This document shows, piece after piece, positions 8,901 to 62,516 of a DNA stretch of 64,000 nucleotides. The first letter of the stretch is position 1. Each line of letters starts with the position of its first letter. The position numbers and the translations under genes were made by a program. Below the pieces are notes generated by a model, which saw only the letters and a list, made by a program, of their open reading frames with translations, was not told the origin of the DNA and did not search any database. Origin of the DNA: Minisyncoccota bacterium (GTDB taxonomy: Bacteria > Patescibacteriota > Minisyncoccia > Phycocordibacterales > UBA9973); contig JBAYFP010000001.1 of assembly GCA_041667145.1 (NCBI GenBank), forward strand, positions 121,056 through 185,055, read 5' to 3'.

Positions 8901-8957
8901 TCTCACCCCCAGCCCCTCTCCTTAATAAGGAGAGGGTGGCCGAAGGTCGGGTGAGGT
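8901..8957. repeat. Family-A palindromic repeat, intergenic (immediately after rseP stop)
   Basis: tctcacccccagcccctctccttaataaggagagggtggccgaaggtcgggtgagg. Confidence 0.8.
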
Positions 8958-9155: not shown

Positions 9156-10679
9156 ATGTTTTCTTCTTATTCATCAAAAAAAGATTATAAAATTTTCTGT
9201 AGAGAATGTTGGCTTTCAGATAATTTAGATCCTCTTTTATATGGACAAGACTATGATTTTTCCAAACCATTTTTTGAACAATTTAAAGAACTTTCAGAAA
9301 AAATACCCCATCTAAATCTTTTTCAGATTAATACAAAAAATTCTGATTATGCCAATGCAGTTAGAGATAGTAAAAATATCTATCTTTCATATTCTGTAGT
9401 AGATGGAGAAGACGTTTTTTATTCTAAAGACATTGATCGTTCTAGGCAAATTTATGATAGTATCACGACGACTGATTCTGAGAAATCAGCTTTTCTTGTT
9501 TATTGTGTAAATGATTACAATGTTATCTATTCAGTAATGACTATGGATTGTTTTGATTCTTCTTTTCTTTTTGATTGCCGAAATTGTTCTAATTGTTTTA
9601 TGTCTACTAATTTAAGGAACCAGCAATACGTATATAAGAATCATAAGTATAGCAAAGAAGAATATTTTTCTATAATTAATCAGATTGATACAGGTAGTCA
9701 CGAGGAGTTTAAAAAATTGGTGACAGAGTTTGAAGAAATGAAATGTAAGGCTATTCATAAGTATTCTCATGTTGGTAAATCCGTTATCAATTCTACGGGG
9801 GATGCTATAAGTAATACTAGAAATTCAAAAGAATGCTTTAACGCATATAACACAGAAAATGTGAAATGGGTTTATAGAGGTTTTGATTTAAAAGATTCCT
9901 ATGATTGCAATCATGGTGGGCTTATGTCTGAGCTAGTATATGAATTTATATCTGGAGGGAAAGAAGAATATAAGACATATTTTACTGCTTCTGCTATGAA
10001 TCCATTACGGGACACTTATTATACTGCTTGGTCTACAGGTTCAAAATTATTTGGTTGTTTTGGTATTAAAGGTGATAGTTATTGTATCTTAAATAAAAAA
10101 TATACCAAAGAAGAATATGAAGAATTAATACCAAAAGTAATTAAACATATGAATGATATGCCTTATGTGAATGATAAGGGAAGAGTGTATAGATTTGGTG
10201 AGTTCTTTCCTTTTGAACTTTCTCCTTATGCATACAATGAATCTGTCGCTCAAGAATTTTTTCCGTTATCATCTGAAGAGATAGTAAATAAAGGTTATAC
10301 ATATTATGAAAATGAAAAGAATAAATATGAAATTACTAAAAAGCCTGAAGACTTGCCAGATAATATATCTGAAGTTAATGAAGATATATTAAAAGAAGTC
10401 ATTGAATGTGAACATAAAGGAGAATGTTTGCATCAATGTACTACTGCTTTTAAAATACACCCTGAAGAGTTTTCTTTTTATCGTAATCACAAACTCCCAA
10501 TTCCACATTTATGTCCCAATTGTCGTTTTTATGAAAGATTAAAATATCGTAACCCTTGGAAACTTTGGCATAGAAAATGCATGAAGGAAGGGTGTACTAA
10601 TGAATTTGAGACTCCTTATGCTCCAGATAGACCTGAAACAATCTATTGTGAACGTTGTTATCAGCGTGAAGTATACTAG
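9156..10679 (+). CDS. Cys-rich multi-zinc-ribbon protein of unknown function (paralog of 62517..64000). Likely true start at 8964, with an in-frame TGA at 9102-9104.
   Basis: ORF-track ORF of 507 aa. Many CxxC pairs. C-terminal block HKGECLHQCT...LPIPHLCPNCRFYERLKYRNPWKLWHRKC...PDRPETIYCERCYQREV is shared with the gene at the other end of the window. Confidence 0.7.
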   Translation: MFSSYSSKKDYKIFCRECWLSDNLDPLLYGQDYDFSKPFFEQFKELSEKIPHLNLFQINTKNSDYANAVRDSKNIYLSYSVVDGEDVFYSKDIDRSRQIYDSITTTDSEKSAFLVYCVNDYNVIYSVMTMDCFDSSFLFDCRNCSNCFMSTNLRNQQYVYKNHKYSKEEYFSIINQIDTGSHEEFKKLVTEFEEMKCKAIHKYSHVGKSVINSTGDAISNTRNSKECFNAYNTENVKWVYRGFDLKDSYDCNHGGLMSELVYEFISGGKEEYKTYFTASAMNPLRDTYYTAWSTGSKLFGCFGIKGDSYCILNKKYTKEEYEELIPKVIKHMNDMPYVNDKGRVYRFGEFFPFELSPYAYNESVAQEFFPLSSEEIVNKGYTYYENEKNKYEITKKPEDLPDNISEVNEDILKEVIECEHKGECLHQCTTAFKIHPEEFSFYRNHKLPIPHLCPNCRFYERLKYRNPWKLWHRKCMKEGCTNEFETPYAPDRPETIYCERCYQREVY

Positions 10680-10762
10680 AGACGTTGGACATCTGGGAGT
10701 ACCCAGGTGTACAACGTCTGAGTTTCTTGACGTTGTACGTCTTCCTGAGACGTCCAACGTCT
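10679..10762. repeat. Family-C nested palindromic repeat (AGACGTTGGAC...GTCCAACGTCT), abutting the stop codon of the Cys-rich gene
   Basis: 84 bp; outer 11-bp inverted repeat plus inner GTACAACGTCTGAG / GACGTTGTAC palindromes; nearly identical copy in reverse orientation at 49434-49516. Confidence 0.85.
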
Positions 10763-10804
10763 AAATTAATTTTGCAAAGATATTTTATTTTATGCACATA
10801 GTCC

Positions 10805-14365: not shown

Positions 14366-14407
14366 TCACCTCACCCCGACCCTCTCCTTAACAAGGAGAG
14401 GGGGAAT
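14366..14407. repeat. Family-A palindromic repeat (shorter copy), intergenic after alr
   Basis: tcacctcaccccgaccctctccttaacaaggagagggggaatt. Confidence 0.7.
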
Positions 14408-15196: not shown

Positions 15197-18100
15197 ATGA
15201 AATTTACTGTTTTTTCTCGTAAAAAAATTCCACACAAAGTTGGAGGCTTTTCTCGTGTTATAAGACTGAAAATTAAATTAAGATTTGAAAAATTAAGAAA
15301 GAAAAAATTTGAAGAATCTATAGTGAGAATAATAAAAGAAAAAATGTTAATGAGAAAAGAAGAAATTAAGAAAATGATTAAAATAATAAAAGAAAACATA
15401 ATGCCGAAAAAAATGATAAACACAAAAAACATTTTAGTTTCTTTTTTTATTTTTTCTTTTTCTTTTTCTTTTTTATATAATCCAAATCAGGTTTTAGCTG
15501 TAGCGCCTACAGTAAATATTACATATAGTTCGAACCCAGTTAAAGCAGGGACACAGAGAATCTCAGTTACATATTCTTCTCAGCCTGCAAGTACTCCTAC
15601 CATTGGTATTAATCAACTAGGAACTACAGATATTCCAAATGGTACAGCTATGGTTCCTCCTTATAGTGATATCAATGCTCCTGGAGTCACTTGGTCAAAT
15701 CCTTTATCATCTAACATAGGATCTGCAGGTGGTTATTGGAATTCTATTGCCTATGGTAATGATATATTTGTAGCTGTTTCGAATTATGGATCAGGTAATA
15801 AAGTAGCAACATCTTCTGATTATGGTGTTACTTGGATTCCTAGGACACCTGCAGAGAGTAACAATTGGGAATCTGTTACTTTTGGCAATGGTATTTTTGT
15901 CGCAGTTTCAAGTAATGGTAATCATAGAGTTATGACCTCAGATAACGGAATTAATTGGTTTCCTCAAAATGTTACGGAAGATTATGACTGGCAATCTGTT
16001 ACTTATGATAATGATCATGGAGTTTTTGTAGCTGTTGCTGATTCTGGTACACATAGAGCAATGACTTCGTCAGATGGTATTATTTGGGAATATAAAACAA
16101 CAGGTTCATATTCTTGGAATTCTGTTGCTTATGGTAACGGAGTTTTTGTAGCTGTTGGTAATCTTGGTAAAATACAAAAATCAACAAACAGCGGTGATAC
16201 ATGGAATGATCCTCAAATAAATAGTAATTCGGCATATTTATATTCTGTTGCTTATGGTAACGGAGTATTTGTTGCAGTCGGGGCTAGTGGTACTATAAGA
16301 ACTTCTTCAGATTTTGGTGATACTTGGCAAGAGCAAACTTCAGGAACTGGTTTAACTATTTCAGATGTGACTTTTGGTAATAATACTTTTGTTGCAGTTA
16401 CTAATTCTAGTGCTAATTTGTTTTTAACTTCACCTGATGGTTTACATTGGACAAGTAGAACAGCTACAGCCGGTGCTACATCTATTGCTTATGGTACTCC
16501 TACTATCAGTGGTGTTGAGACCTCTATGTTTGTAGCAGTTGAGCGTACGAGCTCTCTTGGTACTAATTTAATTACTTCTACAAGTAGAAAATTAAGTTTT
16601 GATGCTGCTCATACATATTATTATGATTATACAGTTTGCGCTGCTGGTAATAGTGGCACTGGTGCTTGCGAGGGTAATTATGTAGATGGTACAGCGACAG
16701 TCACCTTATCAGATGTAAAAGATCTATATGGTGTTTCATATACCCCAAGTGGTACTACATTTACGATTGATACTACCGAAAGTGCTCCCGGTACTCCTGA
16801 TATGACAGCAGGGACAGATACTGGTTCCTCTAGCACAGATAATACTACTTCTGACACGACTCCTGATTTTACTATTTCTTGTGATACTGGAGCTACTGTC
16901 ACTTTATATAAGGATACAACTTCTTCAGTTGGTACGGGAACATGTTCTTCTTCAACGGTTACAATAACTTCATCAACTCTTTCAGCTGGTACTTATGCAA
17001 TGAACGCTAAACAAACTGATGCAGCGGGTAATACTTCGAGTGCATCAGGAAATCTTTCAGTTACGATTGACACAACTGCGCCTAGCGTCAGTACTGTTAC
17101 TTACTCTAGATCTAGTATAAAACAAAATGATACATTAACTATTACAGTTAATTTTAATGAAGCTTTAGCAATTACTAATCCTCCACAAATTGCGATTTCA
17201 GGAGTTAATAATCTTACAGCTACAAATATGACAGAAGGATATGAGACTTGTGATCGTCATCCATGTGCACAAGTGCTGAGTCCTTCAAGGTGGACTTATG
17301 ATTTTTCTATACAGTCAGGAAATGGTTCACCGACTGTTACTATAAGTGCAGGTCAAGATGCAGCAGGAAATATTATGACAAATGCCTCTTCTCCTACTAG
17401 TTTTTCTAGTTTTACAGTAGACAATATTGCTCCAACAAATCAAAATACTGTTTTTCCAACCTCAATTTCAAAAAAGAGTAGCGTGACAGTGACATCACCA
17501 AATATTGTTTCTGCAGGAGAAACAGGTGGTTCAATTTGGTTTGCTCCATCGGGAACAACTACATTTACAGCTGGTGCAACTATGACTACAGCAGGAGGGA
17601 CAGCCACAACTATTTTAGCTCCACTTACTGCAGGATCATATAAATTATTTGTCCGTGATGCAGCCGGAAATACATCTTTAGCCTCGACTGCGATTTTGAC
17701 TGTCGATAATACTGCACCGACTGTTGCCTTATCATATACCTCCGATCCAATTAAGGCGGGGACACAAACTATTACAGCTACATATTCTAAAGCGATTACA
17801 AGTATTCCAAACATTAGAGTTGATCAATATGGGACTGTGCCAGATGATCTTCTTTTTCATCCAATGACCAATAATGATAGTGGAGTTAATAAAGTTTGGA
17901 AATATGATTATACAGTTCATGCAGCTACTGATTCATGTCCACAAGGGGGAACTCCTCCTTGTTATGCAGATGGTACAGCTCAAGTATCTTTATCATCTAC
18001 CACAGATGTAGCGGGAAATACTTCTGGTACTCCTAGTAGTTCTACATTCATAATTGACACCGCAGCACCTACAAATTCTATCAGTGCTCCATCAGTTTCT

Positions 18101-21100
18101 TCTACTTCAATTGGTCCTGTAACATATACTGTTTCTTACTCAGGAGCAAATACTGTTTCACTTGCTAATGAGAATATAACTTTAATCAAAACAGGAACAG
18201 CTGATGGAACAGTCGCTGTTTCAGGTACTGGTATATCTTCTCGAACAGTGACTATTTCTTCTATCACTGGTACTGGCACTTTAGGAATTTCTATTGCTGC
18301 TGGTACTGCTTCTGATACTGCGGGAAATACTTCTCTAGCTATGGGAGCGTCTACTACTTTTGATGTAAGTAATGTTCCTTTAACAGTTGCAAGTATTTCT
18401 GTAGATTTAGCCTCAGGTTCATATAAATCTGGTCAAGCAATAATAACAACAGTAACTTTCTCTAAAGATGTTACATCGACTGGGAATGCAACTGTGACAT
18501 TTGATACGGGAGGGACATGTACTTTTACTATTAGTAATGCTTCATCAGGAAGTTGTACTTATACTGTCGGGGCTGGACAAAATTCTAGTGTTTTAGCTGT
18601 CTCGTCTGTTACGGGGACTATAAAAGATGCTGCCTTAAATTTATTGACTGCAACTACTCCTGTGATGAATATTTCTCCAACAAAAACAATTGTGATTGAT
18701 ACCACAGCACCAATTCTTTCCTTCACTGATGATGTAGCTGTTGGTCCTACATCTTCTGATACAATCACTGCTTCTTGGGTTGGTACTACTACTGGACAAA
18801 AAAAATGGATGTATGATACGGATAGAATTTGTTCACCTACTTCAACTGATTACACAATGACAGATAGTGATTCAATGGATCAAATTACAACCACAAACAA
18901 TACAAAATTTATTTGTTTGTATGGAGCAGATCTTGCTGGAAATTATTCAACACTAGCTTCAACAAATGATATAAATATTGATGCTAGTGGACCGACTGTC
19001 AGTATTTCTTCTCCCACTTCAAGCCCTACAAACGAAACAATAACTGTTAATGTTTTGTTTGATAAATCTGTTTCTGATTTTATTTATTCTGATATTTCAG
19101 TTACAAATGGTACAGTTTCATCTGCATCTTTTTCTGGCTCAGGAATGACTTATTCTTTTATAGTTACACCAACAGCTAATGGAGTAGTTGGTATAAGTAT
19201 TGGTTCAGGGGTGGCACATGATACAGCAGGAAATACAAACTCTGCTTCTAACTCTATATCCATAACATATAGTAATATAGGGCCGACAGTTATTTTAAGT
19301 TCCCCGTCACCTTATTATATTAATGGCTCATTCGATGTCGTTGCCACCTTTAGTGAACCTGTGACTGGGTTTACTTCAGCGGATATTACTATAAATGGTG
19401 GTATAGGTAATAGTTACGTAGACGGTTGGGCTGATGATGGTACAACGTATGAATTTTCTATTGTTCCAGATGGAGGAGGAATTGTTACTGTTGATATTAA
19501 TGGTGGAGTTGCTGTAAATGCAGCCCAAAATGGGAATATCGCTGCTACACAACTTTCTAGATTAAATGATACTGCTCCGCCTACTGCATATGATATCCCA
19601 ACAATTTGTTCTGTTGAAGGAAATTTATGTACTACCGCAGGTCAAAATGCCGATCCACAGGAAGTATATGATGTCGGTATGAGTACTATTTCTAGTACTG
19701 CCGAAGATGGTGATTCAGGAATAAGTAATGTTCAAATTTCAATTAATGATACTACTGCCAATAAATGGTATAACGGTACAATATTTACAACATCTGGTAG
19801 TGAAATATTATTAAATACAGTATTTGCATATTCAGAGAACGACGGGCAAACTCACTGGAGTTATGATTTTTCTAGCGTACCTTTAATTACTGGGGATACG
19901 TATACGATTAAAGTTACTGTTACAGATGGAGTATCTAATACAAATACTGCATCAGAATCTTTTAAATTTATAAATTCTGCACCAGAAGTTTCGAATGTAG
20001 TTCCATTGGAAGATGCGACTGGTTTAGTGACAGTGCATTATGATGTTACAGATAATGAATCTTCTCAAACTACGAATTATTTATTTTACAGTGTAGGAGG
20101 AAATGGTGTAGACGCAGGTTTAGCTAGTGACGCAACAAGTCTTAATTTATCTGACGCTACTTATTTCCCAAATTCAGGAATTATTCTTATAGATAATGAG
20201 ATGATTTCTTATACAAGTAAATCAGGAGCTACTCTTTTAGGTCTCACCAGAGGGATATTAAATACGATACCAGTTGCTCATGAAGATAGTGCTACTGTAT
20301 ATATAAAAGCAAGTTCAGCTACAGGTGGCGGAATTGGATTATCTGATGTTGGTACAAATAAGACTATAACTTGGCAAGCATCTTCTGATGCAAATGGATA
20401 TGAATATGATGTATCTTTTATTAAAGTTGTTGCAAATGATGGAGGAGTTGCCAATATGGTAGGTTCAGCAACTAACGAGGAAGGATTTATTCTTGATGCA
20501 AAAGCACCTACTGCAACAGTCACATTTGACGCTGGTGTCGGGGGAGAAACAAATAGTGGAGTAATTACTATTCCGATGCCTGAAGATATATCAGCTGTTG
20601 AGTATAAGATTACAGATGTAAATAATTTGTCAACAAATGCAGATTCTGGTGTTTGGAAATCTATAACGACTAGTACAACTTTACCTTGGACTTTTGATTC
20701 TAATATCATAGCAAGAAGTTTGAAATATCAGTTTAGAGATGCATACGGAAATATTGGATCTGAAATTACTACCTCTACCCAAGATCCGATTCCTACTAAG
20801 TTATTTACTGTCACTGATACATCGAATGTTTCATCAACACCTGCTTATCATCAAATGCATATGGATTGGCAGGCAGTGAGTTCTAGTGGGTTTTCTTCTT
20901 ATAAATTAGAATATAAAACATCTAGAAATAATATTAATTACATTGGTAATGGTTACACATCTATCTCTAGTACAGCTCTCAACAATGTTAGTACTGATAG
21001 TTATGATGATAAAAGTTTAACGCCAGATAATTTTTATAAATATCGTATAGGGATAATCGGTACTAATGGTAATGTTTCTATGAGATCAGATACTATTCTC

Positions 21101-24067
21101 GTTCGAGCAAATGGATTTCAGGATTATGATGAAGGTGGTGGAGGGACTGTTTTAAAAGCTCCAAAAGTAGAAAATGTTGTTCCGATTCAGGGATCAGATA
21201 AAAATGTGACAGTTAATTATCTTTTAACTGATACTTCATTATCAAAAAAGATTGATCTATTTTATGAAGGATATTTATTCTACAATATAGGAATTACATT
21301 ACCTGAAGATTCTTTTTCTGAATCTGAAGATACCTTAACACTTTCTGATACATCAAAATTAAAATCCTCTGGTTATATTTTAGTTAATAATGAAGTTATA
21401 AAATATACCTCTATAAGTGGAAATGTTTTAGAAGGTTTGACACGAGGTACTTGGCCTAATTTATCTACTTCTGGTAGAACGACTAGAACAAATTCTACTT
21501 TCTCTACAGGAGCTCCTGTTTGGATATTTGCAAATAATACTATCCCTATAGCTATAAATAGTAATTCCTCAATAATTTCTGGAGAAGCAGAATCAATAGT
21601 ATGGAATACAGAGGATGAAACAGGGTTAAAAGGTAATGTCTTTTCTAAAGTAGAATTCAAGGTATTAATTCATGACAATCAAACTTCTTCTCTAGGACCT
21701 ATATCCAGTCAGAATGATTCTTCCCAAGATGGAATTTTAAGTATTCTAGATCTTAGTGATACTGTTATTGAACCTACTGTCAAATCTACCAGTGCTGTTA
21801 TCACTTGGAATACTGATGATTATTCTGATTCTCTTATAGAATATGGAACGACTGAAGGTGTATATAATTTATCAAAAAGTAATTCAGATAGAGTTACGAG
21901 TCATCGTATTTATCTAAGTAATTTATTACCAAGTACGACTTATTTCTATAAAACAACTTCTACGAATGAATTGAGTGAAGCTATTACTTCTACGGGTCAA
22001 TTTACGACAAGTCCTAGTCCTGTGGTGACTAGTGTAAGTGTTCAAAGTGTGACTGATACAACTGCTGTAATAACATGGACCACAGCTGATGTTGTTTCAA
22101 GTTCTTATGTCGTATATTCGACTAATTCAGATTTAAGTGGCTCTATTACTGTCAATGATGATGAACTTGTGACAGATCACACAGTAACTTTAAGTGGACT
22201 TACACCAGAAAGGAATTATTATTTTAAAGTTTATTCTGTTGATGCTAATGAATATATTGGAGAAAAAACAGACAATCCTGATCCAGATACAAGTACTGAA
22301 GAAATATATTTTATGTTTACTACTGGATTAGATGAAACTGCTCCAATTATTTCTAATATTCAAATACCAATCATTACATATTCTGGAGTGGCAATAATAT
22401 GGACGACAAATGAGCAAGCCGATGGGCGGATAGGTTATAGTACAGAGAGCGTAGAAGATGGTGGGTCATACACTTATACTGATGTTGTCCCATTGTCTGG
22501 AGCATTAGTCACTAATCATGTCGCTACTATTGAAGATTTGAGGAAAACTACTAAATATTATTATGTAGTCGAATCTACAGATACACAGGGGAATACTGCT
22601 ACCTCTGATGAAGGGAATTTTACGACTGATAGACAACTAACAACTGGAGGGGGTAATGTTATAGGAGTTCTACAAGAGATCTATGATGCATTAATGAAAG
22701 AAAATGAAGAAAATAAGGCTAGATTAAAGAATCAGAGTTCTGATATTCCTGTTATATCAAATGTTGATATTGTAGATGTGAATGCCTTTGGAGCAACGAT
22801 CAGTTTCAATACAGATAAAGAAACTGTGGGGGGTGTCGATTATGGGAAAGATACAAAATATGGTAAAAATGAAGGTGATTTTATTTGGAGCACTACTCAT
22901 AAAATAGTTCTCAATGGTCTTACTATGGGTACTGATTATAATTTTAAGATAAAAGTTATCGATAGATATAGTAATATTGGTACTGGAGACAATCAGACTT
23001 TTAAAACGAAATTCTTAACTGAAAAACTCGCTGAACTTCAGAAGATAGAAAATATTGAGCAATTTCAAAAAGAAATAGAAGCCACAATTGAATCGATTTT
23101 GCCTTCGCTTGTGCCTCCTTTTATTGACCTACCGGCTATAACTAATATTACTGAAAATACTGCCACTATTACCTTCAAGACAAATATAAAAACATATCCA
23201 GTAGTAAATTATAGTTCCGATGCTACTTATGACATTACAAAAGAAAATCCATATGAAGGGGAAATAACGGATACAACTGAAAAAAGCTTAGACCATACGT
23301 TATCTCTTATTGGATTGAAACCTAATACAAAATATCACGTGATGGCGAAGGCGTACTCTCTTCCTCAAGTCATAGGTAAATCAGTAGATGTAACTTTTAC
23401 AACTAAACCATCGAAAATAAAAGCAACGATTACGGAACGTAAAAATGATTCGTTTACAATAGTATGGGTTACTGATGGCCCTACTTCTTCAATAGTAGAA
23501 TACAAAGATTTGAAAACAAATAAAACAGGAAGAATATCTGATGACGCAAAAAATACTTCACATTCTGTAAAAATAGAAAATCTTACCCCTGGTACCTCAT
23601 ACACGGTAGATGTTTCAGGATACAATGATATAGGCAATCTAGTAGAGGGATCTGAGACTCTAACAGTAAATACACTTACAGATACTGTTCCTCCGGTCAT
23701 CTCTAATTTTAAACTTGATAGTGCATTAGTATTAGGACGTACTGATAAGACTCAGACGATAGTATCATGGACTACAGATGAGCCATCCACCTCTATTGTT
23801 TATTATGAAGAAGGTTCTGGGTCACCTGATAAAGCACTTGCCAATAAACAAGAAAATAGCGAGCTATCAATAAACCATGTCATTATCTTGACTACATTAA
23901 GACCGGGTACAGTTTATAGATTCCAGATAGCTTCGAGAGACAATGCTAATAATATCAATACGCTTCCTATTCGAACCATCATCACACCAAGACCAAATGA
24001 ATCCATTGTTGACATAATCTTCAAGAATTTTGACGAGACGTTTAATTTCTTGAAAAATGTGCAGTAA
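15197..24067 (+). CDS. giant secreted/cell-surface protein (2956 aa): K-rich N-terminal extension plus hydrophobic signal/anchor, BNR/Asp-box beta-propeller, multiple Ig-like domains, at least six FN3-like domains
   Basis: Asp-box repeats (SSDYGVTW, TSDNGINW, SSDGIIW, STNSGDTW, SSDFGDTW, SPDGLHW) with YGNGxFVAV blades. Repeated TIDTTAPS / TVDNTAPT / IIDTAAPT / VIDTTAPI domain boundaries. FN3-like repeats (AVITWNTDDYSDSLIEYGTT..., TAVITWTTADVVSSSYVVYST..., VAIIWTTNEQADGRIGYST...). An alternative start at ATG 15401 gives a classical signal peptide. Confidence 0.8.
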   Translation: MKFTVFSRKKIPHKVGGFSRVIRLKIKLRFEKLRKKKFEESIVRIIKEKMLMRKEEIKKMIKIIKENIMPKKMINTKNILVSFFIFSFSFSFLYNPNQVLAVAPTVNITYSSNPVKAGTQRISVTYSSQPASTPTIGINQLGTTDIPNGTAMVPPYSDINAPGVTWSNPLSSNIGSAGGYWNSIAYGNDIFVAVSNYGSGNKVATSSDYGVTWIPRTPAESNNWESVTFGNGIFVAVSSNGNHRVMTSDNGINWFPQNVTEDYDWQSVTYDNDHGVFVAVADSGTHRAMTSSDGIIWEYKTTGSYSWNSVAYGNGVFVAVGNLGKIQKSTNSGDTWNDPQINSNSAYLYSVAYGNGVFVAVGASGTIRTSSDFGDTWQEQTSGTGLTISDVTFGNNTFVAVTNSSANLFLTSPDGLHWTSRTATAGATSIAYGTPTISGVETSMFVAVERTSSLGTNLITSTSRKLSFDAAHTYYYDYTVCAAGNSGTGACEGNYVDGTATVTLSDVKDLYGVSYTPSGTTFTIDTTESAPGTPDMTAGTDTGSSSTDNTTSDTTPDFTISCDTGATVTLYKDTTSSVGTGTCSSSTVTITSSTLSAGTYAMNAKQTDAAGNTSSASGNLSVTIDTTAPSVSTVTYSRSSIKQNDTLTITVNFNEALAITNPPQIAISGVNNLTATNMTEGYETCDRHPCAQVLSPSRWTYDFSIQSGNGSPTVTISAGQDAAGNIMTNASSPTSFSSFTVDNIAPTNQNTVFPTSISKKSSVTVTSPNIVSAGETGGSIWFAPSGTTTFTAGATMTTAGGTATTILAPLTAGSYKLFVRDAAGNTSLASTAILTVDNTAPTVALSYTSDPIKAGTQTITATYSKAITSIPNIRVDQYGTVPDDLLFHPMTNNDSGVNKVWKYDYTVHAATDSCPQGGTPPCYADGTAQVSLSSTTDVAGNTSGTPSSSTFIIDTAAPTNSISAPSVSSTSIGPVTYTVSYSGANTVSLANENITLIKTGTADGTVAVSGTGISSRTVTISSITGTGTLGISIAAGTASDTAGNTSLAMGASTTFDVSNVPLTVASISVDLASGSYKSGQAIITTVTFSKDVTSTGNATVTFDTGGTCTFTISNASSGSCTYTVGAGQNSSVLAVSSVTGTIKDAALNLLTATTPVMNISPTKTIVIDTTAPILSFTDDVAVGPTSSDTITASWVGTTTGQKKWMYDTDRICSPTSTDYTMTDSDSMDQITTTNNTKFICLYGADLAGNYSTLASTNDINIDASGPTVSISSPTSSPTNETITVNVLFDKSVSDFIYSDISVTNGTVSSASFSGSGMTYSFIVTPTANGVVGISIGSGVAHDTAGNTNSASNSISITYSNIGPTVILSSPSPYYINGSFDVVATFSEPVTGFTSADITINGGIGNSYVDGWADDGTTYEFSIVPDGGGIVTVDINGGVAVNAAQNGNIAATQLSRLNDTAPPTAYDIPTICSVEGNLCTTAGQNADPQEVYDVGMSTISSTAEDGDSGISNVQISINDTTANKWYNGTIFTTSGSEILLNTVFAYSENDGQTHWSYDFSSVPLITGDTYTIKVTVTDGVSNTNTASESFKFINSAPEVSNVVPLEDATGLVTVHYDVTDNESSQTTNYLFYSVGGNGVDAGLASDATSLNLSDATYFPNSGIILIDNEMISYTSKSGATLLGLTRGILNTIPVAHEDSATVYIKASSATGGGIGLSDVGTNKTITWQASSDANGYEYDVSFIKVVANDGGVANMVGSATNEEGFILDAKAPTATVTFDAGVGGETNSGVITIPMPEDISAVEYKITDVNNLSTNADSGVWKSITTSTTLPWTFDSNIIARSLKYQFRDAYGNIGSEITTSTQDPIPTKLFTVTDTSNVSSTPAYHQMHMDWQAVSSSGFSSYKLEYKTSRNNINYIGNGYTSISSTALNNVSTDSYDDKSLTPDNFYKYRIGIIGTNGNVSMRSDTILVRANGFQDYDEGGGGTVLKAPKVENVVPIQGSDKNVTVNYLLTDTSLSKKIDLFYEGYLFYNIGITLPEDSFSESEDTLTLSDTSKLKSSGYILVNNEVIKYTSISGNVLEGLTRGTWPNLSTSGRTTRTNSTFSTGAPVWIFANNTIPIAINSNSSIISGEAESIVWNTEDETGLKGNVFSKVEFKVLIHDNQTSSLGPISSQNDSSQDGILSILDLSDTVIEPTVKSTSAVITWNTDDYSDSLIEYGTTEGVYNLSKSNSDRVTSHRIYLSNLLPSTTYFYKTTSTNELSEAITSTGQFTTSPSPVVTSVSVQSVTDTTAVITWTTADVVSSSYVVYSTNSDLSGSITVNDDELVTDHTVTLSGLTPERNYYFKVYSVDANEYIGEKTDNPDPDTSTEEIYFMFTTGLDETAPIISNIQIPIITYSGVAIIWTTNEQADGRIGYSTESVEDGGSYTYTDVVPLSGALVTNHVATIEDLRKTTKYYYVVESTDTQGNTATSDEGNFTTDRQLTTGGGNVIGVLQEIYDALMKENEENKARLKNQSSDIPVISNVDIVDVNAFGATISFNTDKETVGGVDYGKDTKYGKNEGDFIWSTTHKIVLNGLTMGTDYNFKIKVIDRYSNIGTGDNQTFKTKFLTEKLAELQKIENIEQFQKEIEATIESILPSLVPPFIDLPAITNITENTATITFKTNIKTYPVVNYSSDATYDITKENPYEGEITDTTEKSLDHTLSLIGLKPNTKYHVMAKAYSLPQVIGKSVDVTFTTKPSKIKATITERKNDSFTIVWVTDGPTSSIVEYKDLKTNKTGRISDDAKNTSHSVKIENLTPGTSYTVDVSGYNDIGNLVEGSETLTVNTLTDTVPPVISNFKLDSALVLGRTDKTQTIVSWTTDEPSTSIVYYEEGSGSPDKALANKQENSELSINHVIILTTLRPGTVYRFQIASRDNANNINTLPIRTIITPRPNESIVDIIFKNFDETFNFLKNVQ

Positions 24068-32023: not shown

Positions 32024-34324
32024 TTATTTTATTTTATTTAGTTTGTCAGGACGATTATTGGGACATTTATTATTACTACATCTTTCAGGAATTGTTTTTG
32101 TACCTTCCATCATCAAGGAACCACATTTATCACAAATTTTACCTGTAGGTTTTGCTTTGATAGCAAATTTACAATCAGGATAATTTGAGCAGGAATAAAA
32201 TATGCCAAATCTTCCACGTCTTTCAGAGATATCTCCTTTTTTACATAGAGGACAAATCACACCAGTTCTTTTTCTCGCTTCTTCTGCCTCATCTTTCTTT
32301 ATGAATTTACACTTCGGATAACGTGAACAGGAGATAAAAGTACCTGTACCGTCACGTCTTTGTTTGATTATAAGTTTTCCACCACCAGATTTTCCCTTTT
32401 TTTCTCCACATTCTGGACACATTTCGCCAGTTTCCTTTGGGCCTTCAAGTTCTGTGCCGTCTAATCTTAATGCTCCATCGCAATCAGGATATTTAGAACA
32501 GGAATAAAATTTACCTCCACGGGAAAGCTTGATGATCATACTACTACCACATTTAGGACATTTAATATTTTCTGGTGCGTCACCTAAATTTGTTGCTTTT
32601 TCTAATTTTTCTTTTATTTTTACTTCTTTTGAAAAAGGACCATAAAAATCTTTAAGAGTTTTTTCATATTCACGTTCTCCTCTAGAAATTTGATCAAGTT
32701 CATCTTCCATCTCTGCGGTAAAAGTATCAGAAATATAATTTGCAAAGTTTTTTTCCAAGAAATCAGATACGACTTCACCGACGTCGGTGGGAAAGAGAGT
32801 CTTATTTTCCTTTCTTACATATTCTCTATCCTCCAAGGTTTTCATTATAGATGCGTAGGTGGAAGGTCGGCCTATGTCTCTTGATTCAAGTTCTTTAATC
32901 AATCCAGCTTCACTATATCTATTTGGTGGTTCAGTAAATTTTTCTTCTTTAATAAGATTTAATAATTTTAATTTTTCTCCTTCTTTTACTTCGGGTAATT
33001 CGATATCTTCTCCAACACTATCTTTATCTACTAGAAGCCAACCAGTAAATAAAATTCTTGAGCCAGTAGCAGAGAAATCAGGGAATTTGAACTCCTGAGA
33101 CGTTGGACGTCTGGATTCTGTATCGGCTTCCAGACGTCCAACGTCTGGGGTTATGTTTGCACTTATTTTCGTCTTTAATAATTTTGCATCAGACATTTGT
33201 GAAGATACTGTACGTTCCCAAATTAATCTATAAAGTCTTTGCTGCTCCTCTGTCCCAGCTTGAAGATTTTCTATATGGGTAGGACGAATAGCCTCATGTG
33301 CCTCCTGAGCATTTTTTGATTTAGTTTTATAAATTCTAGCTTGTGCATACTTACTACCATATTTTTTTTCTACAAGAGAAACTATTTGAGCTTGAGCGAC
33401 AGCAGATAAATTTGTACTATCTGTTCGCATATATGTGATGTGTCCTGCTTCGTATAGTTTCTGCGCTATTTGCATAGTTCTTGAAGGGGAGTAGCCAAGT
33501 CGTGAGCTTGCTGTTTGTTGTAATGTAGAAGTAGTGAAAGGTGCACGAGGAACTCTTTTTTGTTCTGATTCTTTTACTTCTTTCACTATCCAATCTTCTT
33601 TTTTACCCAATTCGAGAATTTTTTCAACTAATTTTTCATCTCTTGGTTCTTCTACACAAACAAGAGTAATTTTTTCCCCTCCTGCCTGAGGAGGGGTGCC
33701 TTTTAAGGCGGGGTGGTGGGAGGTTTCAAAAAGTCCTAAAAGTTTCCAATATTTTTCAGGAATAAATGCACGAATTTCTCGTTCACGTTCCATTATGATA
33801 CGAAGCGCAGGGGATTGAACTCTTCCAGCTGAAAGTCCATAACGTACTTTTTTCCAAATAAGACCTGAAAGATCATATCCTACGAGTCTATCGAGTACTC
33901 GTCTTGCTTCTTGGGCTTTTCTTAGGTTTGTATCTATATCACGAGGGTGCTTTAAAGCTTCTTCCACAGCGTCTTTAGTAATTTCATAAAAAACTACCCT
34001 TTTTATAGGGGCTTTTATTCTTTTGCTTTTCTTTAATAATTCTTCAATATGCCAAGCGATAGCTTCTCCTTCACGATCAGGGTCTGTTGCTAAAAGTATT
34101 TCATTTGCTTTTTCTCCGAGAGATTGAAGTTCATGGACAACTTTTTCTTTACCTTTAGAAATTTCGTAATGTGGTATAAATCCACCTTCTATATCGATAG
34201 CTATTTTATTTGATTTTGGTAAATCACGAATATGTCCAATAGAAGCACGTACTGTGTACGCACCTTCTAAATATTTTTCAATAGTCTTTGCTTTTGATGG
34301 TGATTCTACAATTAAAAGTTTCAT
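32024..34324 (-). CDS. topA: DNA topoisomerase I with C-terminal zinc ribbons
   Basis: TOPRIM N-terminus LLIVESPSKAKTI, active-site region, 3-4 C4 zinc ribbons. Contains two in-frame GC-rich palindromic insertions. Confidence 0.9.
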   Translation of the reverse strand: MKLLIVESPSKAKTIEKYLEGAYTVRASIGHIRDLPKSNKIAIDIEGGFIPHYEISKGKEKVVHELQSLGEKANEILLATDPDREGEAIAWHIEELLKKSKRIKAPIKRVVFYEITKDAVEEALKHPRDIDTNLRKAQEARRVLDRLVGYDLSGLIWKKVRYGLSAGRVQSPALRIIMEREREIRAFIPEKYWKLLGLFETSHHPALKGTPPQAGGEKITLVCVEEPRDEKLVEKILELGKKEDWIVKEVKESEQKRVPRAPFTTSTLQQTASSRLGYSPSRTMQIAQKLYEAGHITYMRTDSTNLSAVAQAQIVSLVEKKYGSKYAQARIYKTKSKNAQEAHEAIRPTHIENLQAGTEEQQRLYRLIWERTVSSQMSDAKLLKTKISANITPDVGRLEADTESRRPTSQEFKFPDFSATGSRILFTGWLLVDKDSVGEDIELPEVKEGEKLKLLNLIKEEKFTEPPNRYSEAGLIKELESRDIGRPSTYASIMKTLEDREYVRKENKTLFPTDVGEVVSDFLEKNFANYISDTFTAEMEDELDQISRGEREYEKTLKDFYGPFSKEVKIKEKLEKATNLGDAPENIKCPKCGSSMIIKLSRGGKFYSCSKYPDCDGALRLDGTELEGPKETGEMCPECGEKKGKSGGGKLIIKQRRDGTGTFISCSRYPKCKFIKKDEAEEARKRTGVICPLCKKGDISERRGRFGIFYSCSNYPDCKFAIKAKPTGKICDKCGSLMMEGTKTIPERCSNNKCPNNRPDKLNKIK
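33096..33148. repeat. Family-C palindromic repeat inserted in-frame in topA (encodes DVGRLEADTESRRPTSQ)
   Basis: cctgagacgttggacgtctgg-attctgtatcggctt-ccagacgtccaacgtctgg: 17-bp perfect inverted repeat. Confidence 0.85.
33681..33703. repeat. Short GC-rich palindrome cccctcctgcctgaggagggg in-frame in topA (encodes ...TPPQAGGE...)
   Basis: Read from sequence. Confidence 0.6.
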
Positions 34325-34363
34325 ATTTCCTAAGTATTACACGAAACATATTTTTTTTGCAAA

Positions 34364-35233
34364 CTAAGTTAATTTTATCTCACCCATTTCTTCTTTAATT
34401 AATTCTTTTATTTCCATCACTGAGAGTATAGCATTTGCATTGGCTGTAGGCATTTTCATTGCTCGAATCAGGTCATCACGCGGTACGGGTTCTCTAAGAA
34501 GACCCACTACTTTCTTTTCTTCCATTGATAGTTCATCAAACAGAGAAGCTTGTTTATTTTCATCTTTTTTCTTTTCAAACCCCAAGGCCTCTAATACATC
34601 CTCGGCACAGGTCACAGGTGTAGCCCCTTGATGAATTAATTTATTTGTGCCTTTTGAAGATGAAGAAAAAATTGATCCCGGTACGACGAGTACGTCTCTA
34701 TTATATTCGGTAGCAAGTCTGGCAGTGATAAGTGTCCCGGATCTCTCTTCAGCCTCTATAATGAGCACAGATTTAGAAATACCTGCCATAAGACGATTGC
34801 GCATAGGAAAGCTCCATTGAGTGGCTTTAAAATCAGGTTCAAATTCTGAAATTAAACATCCACCATTGTCTACAATTTCTTTCATTATTTTAACGTTAGT
34901 TTTTGGGTACATTGCTTCGGGAGAAAGCCCTGATCCGGGGAATACAAGAGTTCGAAGACCGATTTGCATCGCTTTTTTATGAGCTATTGTATCAATACCG
35001 ATAGCAAAACCAGAAACTATAGCTATCGGATAGCCTTTAAGTCCTGCAATTATTTTTTCGCAGGCATCCTTCCCATAAGAAGTAAATTTACGTGAGCCAA
35101 CTACACATAAATAAATAAGATCTTCTTCAGGAAGATCACCTATAATCCAGAGGTCTTCTGGTGGTTGTGGTATTTCTAAAAGTTGTTTAGGAAATTCATT
35201 TTTTGGTAATTTTTTTATTTCCACGCTTTTCAT
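34364..35233 (-). CDS. dprA: DNA processing protein DprA/Smf
   Basis: VVGSRKFTSYG, AIVSGFAIGIDTIAH, Rossmann-like DprA core. The start was reassigned to internal Met MKSVEIKK (35231-35233) because the track ORF N-terminus overlaps serS and is low-complexity. Confidence 0.75.
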   Translation of the reverse strand: MKSVEIKKLPKNEFPKQLLEIPQPPEDLWIIGDLPEEDLIYLCVVGSRKFTSYGKDACEKIIAGLKGYPIAIVSGFAIGIDTIAHKKAMQIGLRTLVFPGSGLSPEAMYPKTNVKIMKEIVDNGGCLISEFEPDFKATQWSFPMRNRLMAGISKSVLIIEAEERSGTLITARLATEYNRDVLVVPGSIFSSSSKGTNKLIHQGATPVTCAEDVLEALGFEKKKDENKQASLFDELSMEEKKVVGLLREPVPRDDLIRAMKMPTANANAILSVMEIKELIKEEMGEIKLT

Positions 35234-35243
35234 TATACCAGCT

Positions 35244-36527
35244 TTGGTATATAATAAAAATATGTTAGATATAAAATTCATTCGTGAAAATAAAGACATT
35301 GTGCAAAAAGGCGCGAAAAAGAAACGCATAGAGATTGATATTGATAAACTCATTACGCTTGATGATGAACGATTAAAACAACTCAAAGAAGTCGAAGACT
35401 TAAGAGGGGAAGTTAATAAAGTTTCAAATGACATAGCTACTGAAAAAGATTCAACCAAAAGAATGCAGCTCATTGAAGAAATGCGTTCCGTAAAAGAAGA
35501 TATTAAATCTAAAGAAGAAAAACTAAAAGCAACCATAGAAGAGTGGCAGAAAGTGATGCTCCAAGTTCCAAATGTTCCAGATATTTCTGTTCCAGATGGA
35601 AAAAGTGATGAAGAAAACCTCGAAGTAAAATCTTGGGGAGAAAAACCCGTGTTTAATTTTACCCCAAAAGATCATATTGCTATTGTTGAAAGTCTTGATC
35701 TAGCTGATTTTGAGAGAGGCGCTAAAGTTTCAGGCTTTCGTGGATATTTTATGAAAAATGATGGAGCATTATTATTCTTTGCACTTTGGCAGTATTTTTT
35801 AGATTATTTTGTGAATCAAGGATACACTCCAATGATAGTGCCATCACTTGTAAGAAAGGAAACATTAATGGGTACAGGATATATACCTGGTGGCGAAGAT
35901 GATTTATATAAAACCCAAGATGGTGAATACCTTGCTGGTACAGCTGAAGTCGCAATGATGTCTTATTATTCAGGTGAAGTCTTGCCAAAAGAATCATTGC
36001 CGAAAAAATTTATTGCCTTTTCTCCATGTTTTAGACGTGAAGCTGGAGCACATGGTAAAGATGTAAAAGGTTTAATAAGAGTGCATGAATTTTTTAAGCT
36101 TGAACAGGTTTTGTTATGTGAGGCTTCTCATGAAGAATCAGCAAAATTACACGAAGAGATAACCTCTCATGTTGAGCATTTAATGCAAGAATTAGGTATT
36201 CCTTATCGTATTGTTGTTAATTGTGGGGGTGATCTAGGCTTAGGTCAAGTAAAGAAATATGATATAGAAGCTTGGATGCCTTCTCAGAATAAATACCGGG
36301 AAACGCATTCTTCTTCATATTTTCATGATTTTCAAACACGCAGATTAAATATTAAATATAAAGATCAAGATGGAAAATCAAAATATATTCATTCACTAAA
36401 CAATACTGCCTGTGCTACATCTAGACTCCCAGCTGCTATTTTAGAGAACTATCAACAAGCTGATGGTTCAATCAAAATTCCTGAAGTACTAAGGAAATAT
36501 ATGGGTGGAAAAGAATTTATAAAATAG
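35244..36527 (+). CDS. serS: seryl-tRNA synthetase
   Basis: N-terminal coiled coil, class II motifs (FRREAGAHGKDVKGLIRVHEF, motif 3 near the C-terminus). Confidence 0.9.
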   Translation: MVYNKNMLDIKFIRENKDIVQKGAKKKRIEIDIDKLITLDDERLKQLKEVEDLRGEVNKVSNDIATEKDSTKRMQLIEEMRSVKEDIKSKEEKLKATIEEWQKVMLQVPNVPDISVPDGKSDEENLEVKSWGEKPVFNFTPKDHIAIVESLDLADFERGAKVSGFRGYFMKNDGALLFFALWQYFLDYFVNQGYTPMIVPSLVRKETLMGTGYIPGGEDDLYKTQDGEYLAGTAEVAMMSYYSGEVLPKESLPKKFIAFSPCFRREAGAHGKDVKGLIRVHEFFKLEQVLLCEASHEESAKLHEEITSHVEHLMQELGIPYRIVVNCGGDLGLGQVKKYDIEAWMPSQNKYRETHSSSYFHDFQTRRLNIKYKDQDGKSKYIHSLNNTACATSRLPAAILENYQQADGSIKIPEVLRKYMGGKEFIK

Positions 36528-48976: not shown

Positions 48977-49366
48977 ATGGTTATGAAACTCTCGGAACTG
49001 TTATCAATGTTTGGCATAATTTGTGGTGTAAATATAATAATTAGTTTAGAAAAAATATTTTCCTCAAACTCAATTCAACAAGCGTATAATGAGTTGGCAT
49101 TGGCTATTGTCTTCTCATTAATATTCATTGCATTTCTTTCTGTAAGTGGCATTGTTGTACACCTGGGAAAGGATCTAAAAATATTAAAAATAAAAAGGAG
49201 TACAAGGTTGTTAACTTGTGGGATTTTTTCTCTCATAGGAATAGTAATTGTTCCTTATTTCTATATATACTCCTCACCGTTTCTCATTATAAATATAACA
49301 ATACTCACAATAATAAGTGCAGACAACTTTTCTAAGGCAAAAAAAGAATTAGATGTCTCATCGTAA
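48977..49366 (+). CDS. hypothetical membrane protein
   Basis: Four predicted hydrophobic helices. Confidence 0.35.
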   Translation: MVMKLSELLSMFGIICGVNIIISLEKIFSSNSIQQAYNELALAIVFSLIFIAFLSVSGIVVHLGKDLKILKIKRSTRLLTCGIFSLIGIVIVPYFYIYSSPFLIINITILTIISADNFSKAKKELDVSS

Positions 49367-49374
49367 ATCGACGT

Positions 49375-49427
49375 AAATCCGCTTCGGTAAGAGTAGAAAG
49401 ATCTACTCATATACTGAGCGGATTTTT
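49375..49427 (+). terminator. Rho-independent terminator-like hairpin (stem AAATCCGCT/AGCGGATTT plus T5) with an internal second stem
   Basis: Read from sequence; the same stem sequence is reused at 50025-50078. Confidence 0.4.
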
Positions 49428-49433
49428 CTATTT

Positions 49434-49516
49434 AGACGTTGGACGTCTCAGGAAGACGTACAACGTCAAGAAACTCAGACGTTGTACACCTGGGTACTCC
49501 CTGATGTCCAACGTCT
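49434..49516. repeat. Family-C nested palindromic repeat, intergenic; near-identical reverse complement of 10679-10762
   Basis: agacgttggacgtctcaggaagacgtacaacgtcaagaaactcagacgttgtacacctgggtactccctgatgtccaacgtct. Confidence 0.85.
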
Positions 49517-49639
49517 GTAAATCCTTATTTTATAAGCTTTATTCAATTTTTACTTGACATACAACTTCATATATGCTATACTCTATGTAGTTTTGTACCA
49601 TAAAAATAATATATTTATTCATTCACAATAGGAGTTTTT

Positions 49640-61378: not shown

Positions 61379-62431
61379 CTAACGACTAATGATAGCTAAA
61401 ATTATTCCTATAATAGAAAAAGCTACAGAAAAAATCCAAAAACGCATCGTCACTTTATAAGACGGCCAACCAAGTGCTTCGAAATGATGATGAATAGGAG
61501 AAAGCTTAAATATTTTCTTTCCACCTCTAAACTTTTTTGAAAACATTTGCAAAATAACAGAACCAGAGGAAACAACGAGAGGCATAGCAACAATGGGTAA
61601 AATCAAAACAGTGTCAGTCAAGAATGCGAGAGTTGCTAGTGTAATAGTGAGCCCTATTATCCCCGTCTCCCCCATATAAAATCTTGCCGGCGGAATATTA
61701 AACCATAAGAACGCTAAAATAGCTCCTGTGGTAACTGCTGAAAATGTAGCTATGTCTATTTGATTATTAGTAAACGCAATCACAGAATATGCAGCAAAAA
61801 TAGAAGCCAATACTCCTCCAGAAAGCCCATCGATTCCATCTATTACTCCTCCTGAAAAAGTTGCAAGTGCTACTATAATAAAAAATGGAATAATTAAGAT
61901 ACCTAAATATAATTCTCCATTAAATGGTATATGAATAGCCACCATCCCAAGTTTATAATAAAACCAAAGTCCGATTAAAAATGAAATAATAATTACCAGT
62001 AATGCTTTCCACATACGCCAAGATTTATCATCATAAGCTATTTTCCCTTTTCCATATATTTGTACTAAATCATCCCAAAGCCCAAGGAATGATCCAAAAA
62101 GTAAAACTAGAAGCGGAATCAAGGTCTGATTTTTACTTAAGAAATTTATCTTCTCAGTCACTTCTCCAGGGAAAAATATTGATATTAAATAAAAAATTAA
62201 GGTAGAAAGAATTATAGATACCCATATAATAATCCCTCCAACACGAGGAGTTCTCAATTCTTCTTCCCCATTGTGAATTTTTTGAAAATCTTTACAAGTA
62301 ACTTCACTACGCGAAGATTTCCTCCACATCTTATATTTATAGAAAAAATGTGTTGCAAGTGGTGTAATAAAAAGCCCTATAAGCAGAGCCGTCATCATCG
62401 GTAGAAAAATCTTAACCATATTCAAAAGCAT
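61379..62431 (-). CDS. mraY: phospho-N-acetylmuramoyl-pentapeptide transferase
   Basis: GLWDDL and IDGIDGLSGG MraY motifs; 10 TM helices. Confidence 0.85.
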   Translation of the reverse strand: MLLNMVKIFLPMMTALLIGLFITPLATHFFYKYKMWRKSSRSEVTCKDFQKIHNGEEELRTPRVGGIIIWVSIILSTLIFYLISIFFPGEVTEKINFLSKNQTLIPLLVLLFGSFLGLWDDLVQIYGKGKIAYDDKSWRMWKALLVIIISFLIGLWFYYKLGMVAIHIPFNGELYLGILIIPFFIIVALATFSGGVIDGIDGLSGGVLASIFAAYSVIAFTNNQIDIATFSAVTTGAILAFLWFNIPPARFYMGETGIIGLTITLATLAFLTDTVLILPIVAMPLVVSSGSVILQMFSKKFRGGKKIFKLSPIHHHFEALGWPSYKVTMRFWIFSVAFSIIGIILAIISR

Positions 62432-62472
62432 ATGTAGATTATATCAAATATAATGGATTTTTCCCAGACCTA

Positions 62473-62513
62473 CCTAGACGTTGTACGTCTTCCTGAGACG
62501 TCCAACGTCTAGG
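62473..62513. repeat. Family-C palindromic repeat (short copy), abutting the 3' end of the second Cys-rich paralog
   Basis: cctagacgttgtacgtcttcctgagacgtccaacgtctagg matches the 3' half of the 10679-10762 copy. Confidence 0.8.
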
Positions 62514-62516
62514 TAT

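Follow-up and report, generated by a model that had tools for sequence, protein, structure and literature searches.

Palindromic hairpins of a Paceibacteria genome as probable REP/REPIN-type elements of a distant RAYT clade, with in-frame copies in topA and other genes

Repetitive extragenic palindromes (REPs), their paired forms (REPINs) and the REP-associated tyrosine transposases (RAYTs) have been studied almost only in Proteobacteria, and their status as long-lived 'replicators' that nest in genomes and are inherited vertically is under debate. As outlined in part of the published literature, REP units paired in inverted orientation make up the REPIN architecture. Most REPs are intergenic, and intragenic REPs have also been documented, many of them in genes for replication and repair (Di Nocera et al. 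2013, PMC3733652). The same source describes how recB in related species of Xanthomonas holds different REPs at about one position, and it gives RPE-4 and RPE-6, of the Rickettsia palindromic elements (RPEs), as CGTC-tagged REPs without known dedicated transposase, this class having at one end an unpaired CGTC tag, a stem of 8-9 bp that starts with AT, a loop of 4-5 nt and a tail of CCA (PMC3733652). Our literature search returned no paper linking RAYT, REPIN or REP with Patescibacteria, Parcubacteria or the candidate phyla radiation (CPR). Here we have analysed family C, a set of dispersed nested palindromes found in a 64,000-nt stretch of the genome of a Minisyncoccota bacterium (contig JBAYFP010000001.1, positions 121,056 to 185,055 of the forward strand; this whole 64-kb stretch is called the window), together with the hairpins, neighbouring genes and orthologous proteins of related genomes.

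An earlier note made from the letters of the window had placed family C at four loci. All four are present essentially at those positions, and the dispersed nested-palindrome family is genuine. With up to two mismatches, the 15-mer AGACGTTGGACGTCT matched the window 10 times against 0.03 expected; with up to three mismatches there were 18 strand-matches, corresponding to 12 units, against 0.55 expected, and neither count was reached in any shuffled sequence. The basic unit is a 15-nt palindrome, AGACGT-TGG-ACGTCT, with a near-perfect 6-bp stem and a 3-nt loop (TGG or CCA), and the partner arm of the hairpin reads AGACGT-CCA-ACGTCT. All 12 units were paired in this way, forming six hairpins at the four loci, and no single unit was found among the 12 window units recovered with up to three mismatches. 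The hairpin, made of two inverted units separated by 4-19 nt, is the entity that is repeated, and the elements measure 35-90 nt in a window of 30-38% G+C. Folded as single-stranded DNA, every window element gave the predicted hairpin or hairpins, with z values between -6.4 and -8.7 against shuffles.

The first locus is a 90-nt composite (10677-10766, plus strand; fold -29.7 kcal/mol, z -7.8) in which a variant REP doublet, H1, AGACGTTGGACATCTGGG-AGTA-CCCAGGTGTACAACGTCT (10680-10719, plus strand; 15-mer matches at 10680 and 10705; fold -16.9 kcal/mol, z -7.5), is followed after an 8-nt spacer by a canonical family-C REP doublet, H2, tGACGTTGTACGTCT-TCCTG-AGACGTCCAACGTCT (10728-10762, plus strand; fold -12.4 kcal/mol, z -6.4). 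This 90-nt unit begins on the TAG stop codon (10677-10679) of ORF 9156-10679; the palindrome, previously delimited as 10679-10762, has its true start at 10680. A second composite (49430-49519, minus strand; H2' at 49434-49468, H1' at 49477-49516; fold z -6.7) is intergenic and is preceded directly by a hairpin plus T-run (about 49367-49425) that comes after ORF 48977-49366. The two had been read as near-identical 84-bp copies in opposite orientations; they are indeed the same element inverted, complementary at 98%, but the repeated unit is 90 nt long. The two hairpins of each 90-nt element were moved or copied as one. The third locus (62471-62515, no strand assigned; fold -18.8 kcal/mol, z -8.5) is a single H2-type doublet whose palindrome is lengthened by TACCT/AGGTA and whose core hairpin, at 62476-62510, shares 97% identity with 10726-10763; it lies between a glycosyltransferase-4 gene (61379-62431, minus strand) and the stop of ORF 62517-63890 (minus strand). 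The fourth, CCAGACGTTGGACGTCTGG-13 nt-CCAGACGTCCAACGTCT (33096-33148, minus strand; fold -21.8 kcal/mol, z -8.7), lies in-frame in topA; within it, the hairpin at 33098-33146 has perfect 15-nt arms, or 18 bp counting the flanks. Three of the four loci are directly 3' of genes. An Rfam scan of the whole window at gathering thresholds returned three tRNAs only and no RNA family at the elements.

Copies outside the window, which the earlier note had proposed to look for, are numerous in related genomes. Searching one genome per species in 185,579 species for the exact hairpin pattern GACGTTGKACGTCT-N3-30-AGACGTMCAACGTC yielded 35 loci, 34 of them in metagenome-assembled genomes (MAGs) of Patescibacteria, with up to 14 in one MAG. 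Besides the source genome of the window, at least 10 Patescibacteria MAGs contain the hairpin, under the labels Paceibacterota, Nomurabacteria and 'Saccharibacteria', and identical 15-mers and loops recur at dozens of unrelated loci in different MAGs. The sole match beyond Patescibacteria (L030, 6483-6525, in a Frankiaceae MAG) was excluded as a probable chance or unrelated palindrome, being a TGT/ACA variant with a 15-nt loop in a long ORF at 69% G+C. No match was found in viral contigs, which leaves phage carriage unsupported. Outside the window the commonest form is CTCC-AGACGTTGGACGTCT-GTAAGCTTAC-AGACGTCCAACGTCT-GGAG, and the bases that precede family-C units are CCAG, ACAG, CTAG or TTAG. 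About one third of the copies in other MAGs carry a GKTTATCCAC tail on one side only, in the form GG(A)GGTTTATCCAC(A) (for example L016 967-1030, L033 3883-3950, L010, L018 and L020). We take this one-sided TTATCCAC tail to resemble a DnaA box, consensus TTATCCACA. No window copy has the tail, and the window shows no enrichment of the motif.

We also inspected the bases flanking the maximal palindrome in 40 copies for the target-site duplications that the earlier note had brought up, and none was present beyond chance: flanking direct repeats were lacking in 25 copies and measured 1 nt in 12, 2 nt in two and 4 nt in one. This result fits single-strand transposition of the Y1/HUH type and argues against a miniature inverted-repeat transposable element (MITE) moved by a DDE-type enzyme.

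ORFs from the 35 hairpin loci were clustered. One ORF family of about 225 aa directly adjoined the hairpin in L007, L016 and L033, which are the three MAGs with most copies. Family-C hairpins stand on both sides of this ORF in L007 and L016, each with a GGAGGKTTATCCACA-type tail; in L033 the upstream hairpin belongs to family C and the downstream one differs in sequence but has the same tail. Both hairpins flanking each gene carry the tail, and upstream of the genes it is followed by CTTCATGAAG. The protein matches Pfam Y1_Tnp with 23-26 bits (cutoff 23). Across 62 sequences it has an invariant HUH motif, N84-H85-F86-H87, in which F86 alone is nearly so, and invariant Tyr109 and Tyr112; an LFQGxFKS block is also present. 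More than 3,400 homologs were retrieved, those with an organism name coming nearly all from Paceibacterota, Nomurabacteria or Parcubacteria MAGs, and annotations from JGI and NCBI call several of them 'REP element-mobilizing transposase RayT' or 'REP-associated tyrosine transposase'. An AlphaFold2 model (pLDDT 85.5, pTM 0.82) found its best fold match in the PDB in 4ER8, a structure of the E. coli RAYT with its REP hairpin bound (E 4.6e-6, TM 0.63 on target), followed by the IS608 and ISDra2 TnpA structures. What had been taken for an uncharacterised repeat system has, then, the anatomy of REP units paired as REPINs, and identical hairpins flank a RAYT-type HUH/Y1 transposase in relatives.

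A second, divergent Y1_Tnp gene (Pfam 40.5 bits) was observed in MAG CAWHSF01 (L010, 3-503). It is followed at 505-560 by a different palindrome, GTTAAACACCGAGTGTTTAAC, and then by a tRNA-gene-like sequence, which suggests that two RAYT or IS200-like systems exist in this one small genome.

Two other ORFs that adjoin family-C hairpins, at 9156-10679 (plus strand, 507 aa) and 62517-63890 (minus strand, 457 aa), are Cys/His-rich paralogs whose last 91 nt are 74% identical. A hairpin begins 0-6 nt past the stop codon of each. Neither ORF had a match in a Pfam search. A role as mobilising protein was rejected, and because a homolog was found at only one of the 35 hairpin loci (L023), where it is not adjacent to the hairpin, the pairing is probably a coincidence of insertion beside stop codons.

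If each RAYT recognised its own hairpin, the sequence of the repeat should vary with the lineage of the enzyme. We compared 83 RAYT loci, namely the three genome loci (L007, L016 and L033) and 80 from a metagenome scan with a RAYT alignment (L042-L121). The same small G+C-rich palindrome stood upstream and downstream of the gene in 49 of the 83, and its sequence varied among RAYT lineages, with dialects such as CGGACGTCCAACGTCCG, CGGGTGTTGGACACCCG, CTCAGACGTTTAACGTCTGAG, TGTAGACGTCGGACGTCTACA, TAGGTGTCCGACACCTA, CAGATAGCGCCTAAGGCGCTATCTG and GGCGGTTCAACCGCC. RAYTs that are 62-66% identical to the family-C enzyme have related units, of GACGT or GGTGT type, and those at about 50% identity have unrelated units; some sister dialects contain GTAG, within the stem. 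The co-variation of palindrome and RAYT lineage is the pattern expected from such recognition. It also bears on the resemblance of the family-C stems to restriction sites (GACGTC, AACGTT), to which attention had been drawn: since dialects beside homologous RAYTs, for example CGGGTGTTGGACACCCG and CAGATAGCGCCTAAGGCGCTATCTG, lack those sites, the resemblance looks incidental.

The RAYT ORF itself contained the palindrome that flanks it in 53 of the 83 loci, against a permuted mean of 2.9 and a permuted maximum of 9. This internal REP is in-frame and always lies in the same variable segment, with the conserved blocks PIGSI and LVSI on either side, at about residues 50-72 of P0121 (for example L007, within 776-1453, L046 and L058); in the AlphaFold2 model the segment is the sole long low-confidence loop, residues 60-69. 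Among the family-C enzymes, that of L007 has GACGTTGGACGTC ('TDVGRL') at the internal segment, and those of L016 and L033 are without it. To our knowledge no such REP inside the ORF has been reported for proteobacterial RAYTs. It may reflect cis-preferential insertion into a permissive loop, or the internal copy may be functional (autoregulatory) or a master copy.

The window copy inside topA was examined against orthologous proteins. The host gene (32024-34324, minus strand) encodes a type IA DNA topoisomerase of 766 aa with Pfam Topoisom_bac (396 bits), Toprim and Zn_ribbon_Top1 matches, and its ORF is intact despite the insertion; the protein is 100% identical to that of an NCBI 'Candidatus Paceibacterota' MAG. 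The in-frame reading reported previously holds: the element is translated within the 766-aa ORF as PDVGRLEADTESRRPTSQ. In a set of 120 TopA orthologs (78-87% identical), the loop at the site is short in 64 and holds an insert of at least 14 residues in 56. The closest relatives (85-87% identical) are either empty (P0004, P0007, P0008 and P0013) or carry different palindrome-encoded peptides, and the comparison with orthologs, another of the checks proposed earlier, thus shows a recent, lineage-specific insertion. At the DNA level, where five filled and two empty sites were compared, every insert was a hairpin with palindromic arms. The topA hairpin dialects checked in this way, five by count, include family C (window and L037), CGGGTGTTGGACACCCGG… (L040), GCGGAAGCCTTGCTTCCGCG… (L039) and CCCGAAGACGGTCTTT… (L038), and that of L040 is a dialect flanking several RAYTs. 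The topA loop is an insertion hotspot, which may be due either to target preference or to tolerance alone. In E. coli TopA (4RUL) the insert aligns to a gap between two short aligned segments near residue 410, a site that, given the TopA fold, is probably a domain-II turn.

The same gene contains a second lineage-specific in-frame insert, SHHPALKGTPPQAGGEK (window 33653-33730, minus strand), encoded by a hairpin, CCCCTCCT-caggc-AGGAGGGG, that resembles the separate palindromic family A described further below. Most orthologs have xKKGK at this site, and an identical insert is found in P0020 and P0035; related GTPPQxGGE peptides occur at the other topA hotspot in P0006, P0057 and P0103. The gene order dprA-topA-relA/spoT-like-parB is kept across the retrieved Paceibacteria contigs (L036-L041; window 32024-35536).

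Insertion into genes is not confined to topA. Of 40 copies, 28 were extragenic and 12 lay in-frame in long ORFs, 11 of these being Pfam-verified genes; such a share of in-frame copies seems high for REPs. The ten Pfam-confirmed host genes elsewhere are guaA (twice), purD, purH, the gene for orotidine monophosphate (OMP) decarboxylase, gatB, Mur ligase (twice), an ABC transporter and a lamin-tail-domain (LTD) protein. The guaA (GMP synthase) insertions occupy the same site in two genomes, as do those in Mur ligase, and PurH has two copies within one gene. Of the three possible frames, all 12 coding copies use a single one, (VDNP)(P/T)DVGRL-loop-RRPTS(G); in many copies the remaining frames (QTLDVC…, RRWTS…) are open as well. 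The loop GTAAGCTTAC, common between genes, puts a TAA into the DVGRL…RRPTS frame and is avoided by coding copies; several have in its place GGAAGCTTCC, where two bases have changed and the loop is still a palindrome. We infer selection for a tolerated hydrophilic peptide, and possibly a coding-compatible sub-family has spread.

Taken together, the anatomy of the repeats, their dispersal, the flanking of RAYT genes, the fold and motifs of the enzyme, the co-variation of dialects, the lack of duplications and the recent topA insertion support the view that family C most probably consists of REP/REPIN-type non-autonomous mobile hairpins that belong to a Paceibacteria (CPR/Patescibacteria) clade of HUH/Y1 RAYTs. 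By analogy with E. coli TnpA-REP and IS608 TnpA, the RAYT would recognise the folded hairpin on single-stranded DNA and cut beside it via a phosphotyrosine intermediate, and the excised piece would be re-joined elsewhere without target duplication. To judge from related genomes, the enzyme would act, or would formerly have acted, in trans on the window copies. Purifying selection would then leave only harmless insertions, either intergenic ones near stop codons or those in surface loops of proteins, and copies within proteins would be restricted to the single frame whose peptide is hydrophilic and without stops. The topA copy would be one such survivor, in a domain-II turn that serves as a repeated landing or tolerance site of the lineage.

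Several observations weigh against this assignment to the REP/REPIN type. The family has a modest copy number in the window (four loci), it is without the GTAG tag of classical REPs, and with about 30% of its copies intragenic it may not count as 'extragenic'. The Pfam match of the RAYT-like proteins is at or just above threshold, and their sole NCBIfam match, REP_Tyr_transpos (NF047646), reaches 24-30 bits and falls short of the equivalog cutoff of 80, so that by sequence they would be a distant clade of that family. A phmmer search of the RAYT against PDB sequences returned nothing, and its membership accordingly rests on fold, motifs and context. Finally, since tblastn found no RAYT homolog in the 64-kb window, mobilisation of the window copies by a RAYT elsewhere in the source genome is suggested by what is seen in related genomes.

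Among other explanations, the one that survives best, although we regard it as unlikely, is that the hairpin is a motif with a function for the host, such as a DNA-uptake sequence for the competence machinery on which CPR bacteria rely, a terminator, an mRNA stabiliser or a nucleoid-protein or DnaA-related site, and that the link with RAYT is secondary or domesticated. The position of three of the four window loci directly 3' of genes would fit this, as would a weak terminator-like call at 10748-10762, the occurrence of the same sequence in different MAGs and, if the likeness is right, the DnaA-box-like TTATCCAC tail on about one third of the copies elsewhere; part of the published literature also argues that REPIN-RAYT systems are maintained through vertical inheritance and may be of benefit to their host. 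Against it, all 12 window units stand in hairpin pairs, without single copies of the kind seen with uptake sequences, most hairpins have no T-run after them, about 30% of the copies lie in ORFs, where terminators would harm, the dialect follows the lineage of the adjacent transposase, and the TTATCCAC tail is found on no window copy, nor is its motif enriched there. Two specific roles were rejected: that of terminator, for which there were weak consensus matches only and the copy at 49434 comes after a separate hairpin and T-run, and that of DNA uptake sequence (DUS/USS), given the lack of singletons among the 12 units and the co-variation of the motif with the adjacent RAYT lineage. Exaptation of some copies may nonetheless have taken place.

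Much less probable is a classical MITE that has terminal inverted repeats, duplicates its target site, and derives from and is moved by an insertion sequence of DDE type. Family C is short, palindromic, dispersed and non-coding, and its two 90-nt copies are 98% identical, but no target-site duplication surrounds the 40 copies, the whole element is one hairpin rather than terminal inverted repeats around unrelated DNA, and the recurrent neighbour gene is a Y1/HUH transposase, with no DDE transposase recurring beside copies. Local template-switch (fold-back) errors or a restriction-modification link (GACGTC/AACGTT), with no master element, are hardly credible either, for although successive rounds of fold-back copying would yield the nested symmetry X-TGG-X' ... 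X-CCA-X' and the stems hold AatII- and AclI-type sites, identical 15-mers and loops at dozens of unrelated loci in different MAGs need a common source, sister dialects are without those sites, and no such hairpin was found in viral contigs. The pairing of all units, the copies inside genes, the way the repeat follows the RAYT lineage and the lack of duplications tell against all three explanations.

If family C is of the REP/REPIN type, a large CPR clade with more than 3,400 RAYT homologs, each with a hairpin dialect of its own, would extend the phenomenon to the most reduced free-standing bacterial genomes. In-frame entry into surface loops of essential enzymes would be a way in which selfish DNA survives where intergenic DNA is scarce, and in CPR proteins the hairpins would account for many short inserts and peptide motifs (of the DVGRL…RRPTS kind) that are specific to a lineage. 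In-gene hairpins can mislead alignment-based phylogeny and annotation, and the hairpins probably help to explain why many RAYT-bearing metagenomic contigs are short (1-3 kb). The TopA hotspot and the REP in the RAYT gene offer handles on target choice and on the co-evolution of transposase and repeat.

A bolder proposal, which we put forward only tentatively and hold to be rather doubtful, is that the Paceibacteria REP-RAYT represents a distinct, coding-compatible REPIN biology, with a hairpin kept in a harmless frame, a functional REP of its own dialect in the RAYT and a target preference for topA. Were this so, the hairpin would colonise proteins where the genome has almost no intergenic space; the REP in the RAYT would be an autoregulatory site, or a co-inherited master copy keeping specificity and repeat matched; and the occupation of the TopA loop by many dialects would stem from a real target preference, for example for hairpin-prone single-stranded DNA.

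Two further features of the window were noted. Family A, a separate palindromic family with core CCCCTCTCCTTAATAAGGAGAGGGG, has four copies within the first 15 kb (85-133, 2541-2594, 8902-8936 and 14370-14403), pairs of which are complementary at 85-98%. A giant ORF of 2,956 aa (15197-24067, plus strand) has in its 5' region (15733-16332) imperfect internal repeats every ~123-129 nt or multiples thereof (direct-repeat families D1, D2, D5 and D10).

Compared with the IS200/IS605 family and its palindrome-associated derivatives, family C has in common a Y1 HUH transposase and the lack of target duplication and, by analogy, would share the recognition of subterminal single-stranded DNA hairpins; IS608 and ISDra2 TnpA were the next-best structural matches of its RAYT. 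It differs in that its transposase gene does not belong to a unit that has separate left and right ends and is present in several copies: the hairpin alone has multiplied, and the same palindrome stands on both sides of the gene.

The Rickettsia palindromic elements, which we compared by their description, resemble family C in lying in-frame in functional housekeeping genes of a reduced genome. As in the RPEs and intragenic REPs, replication and repair genes are among the hosts and different REPs are found at one site of a gene. Unlike the CGTC-tagged REPs, however, family C has its CGTC within a 6-bp stem closed by a 3-nt loop and so lacks the tag that defines them, and unlike the RPEs it has a RAYT flanked by the element, its elements being 35-90 nt long.

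The closest likeness is with the proteobacterial REP/REPIN-RAYT systems (E. coli TnpA-REP, 4ER8; REPINs of Pseudomonas fluorescens). In both, inverted palindromic units are paired into larger hairpins, dozens of copies are dispersed, the same units stand on both sides of an HUH/Y1 gene, the repeat changes together with the lineage of the transposase and target-site duplications are lacking; 4ER8 is the best structural match of the family-C RAYT model, and, as in the GTAG REPs (PMC3733652), element ends abut or supply TAG stop codons. Differences are also clear. Family C has no unpaired GTAG tag and its unit consists of a 3-nt loop on a near-perfect 6-bp stem; about 30% of its copies are in-frame in genes; its RAYT, of about 225 aa, has an extra C-terminal helical region and scores below the NCBIfam equivalog cutoff; most RAYT genes of the Paceibacteria clade hold their own REP in the ORF; and the host is a CPR bacterium with an apparently very small genome. 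REP/REPIN-RAYT as a kind, intragenic REPs and the RayT labels given to some genes by annotation pipelines are thus already known, whereas the absence of GTAG, the mini-palindrome unit, the large share of in-frame copies, the multi-dialect TopA hotspot and the REP in the RAYT ORF depart from the classical picture.

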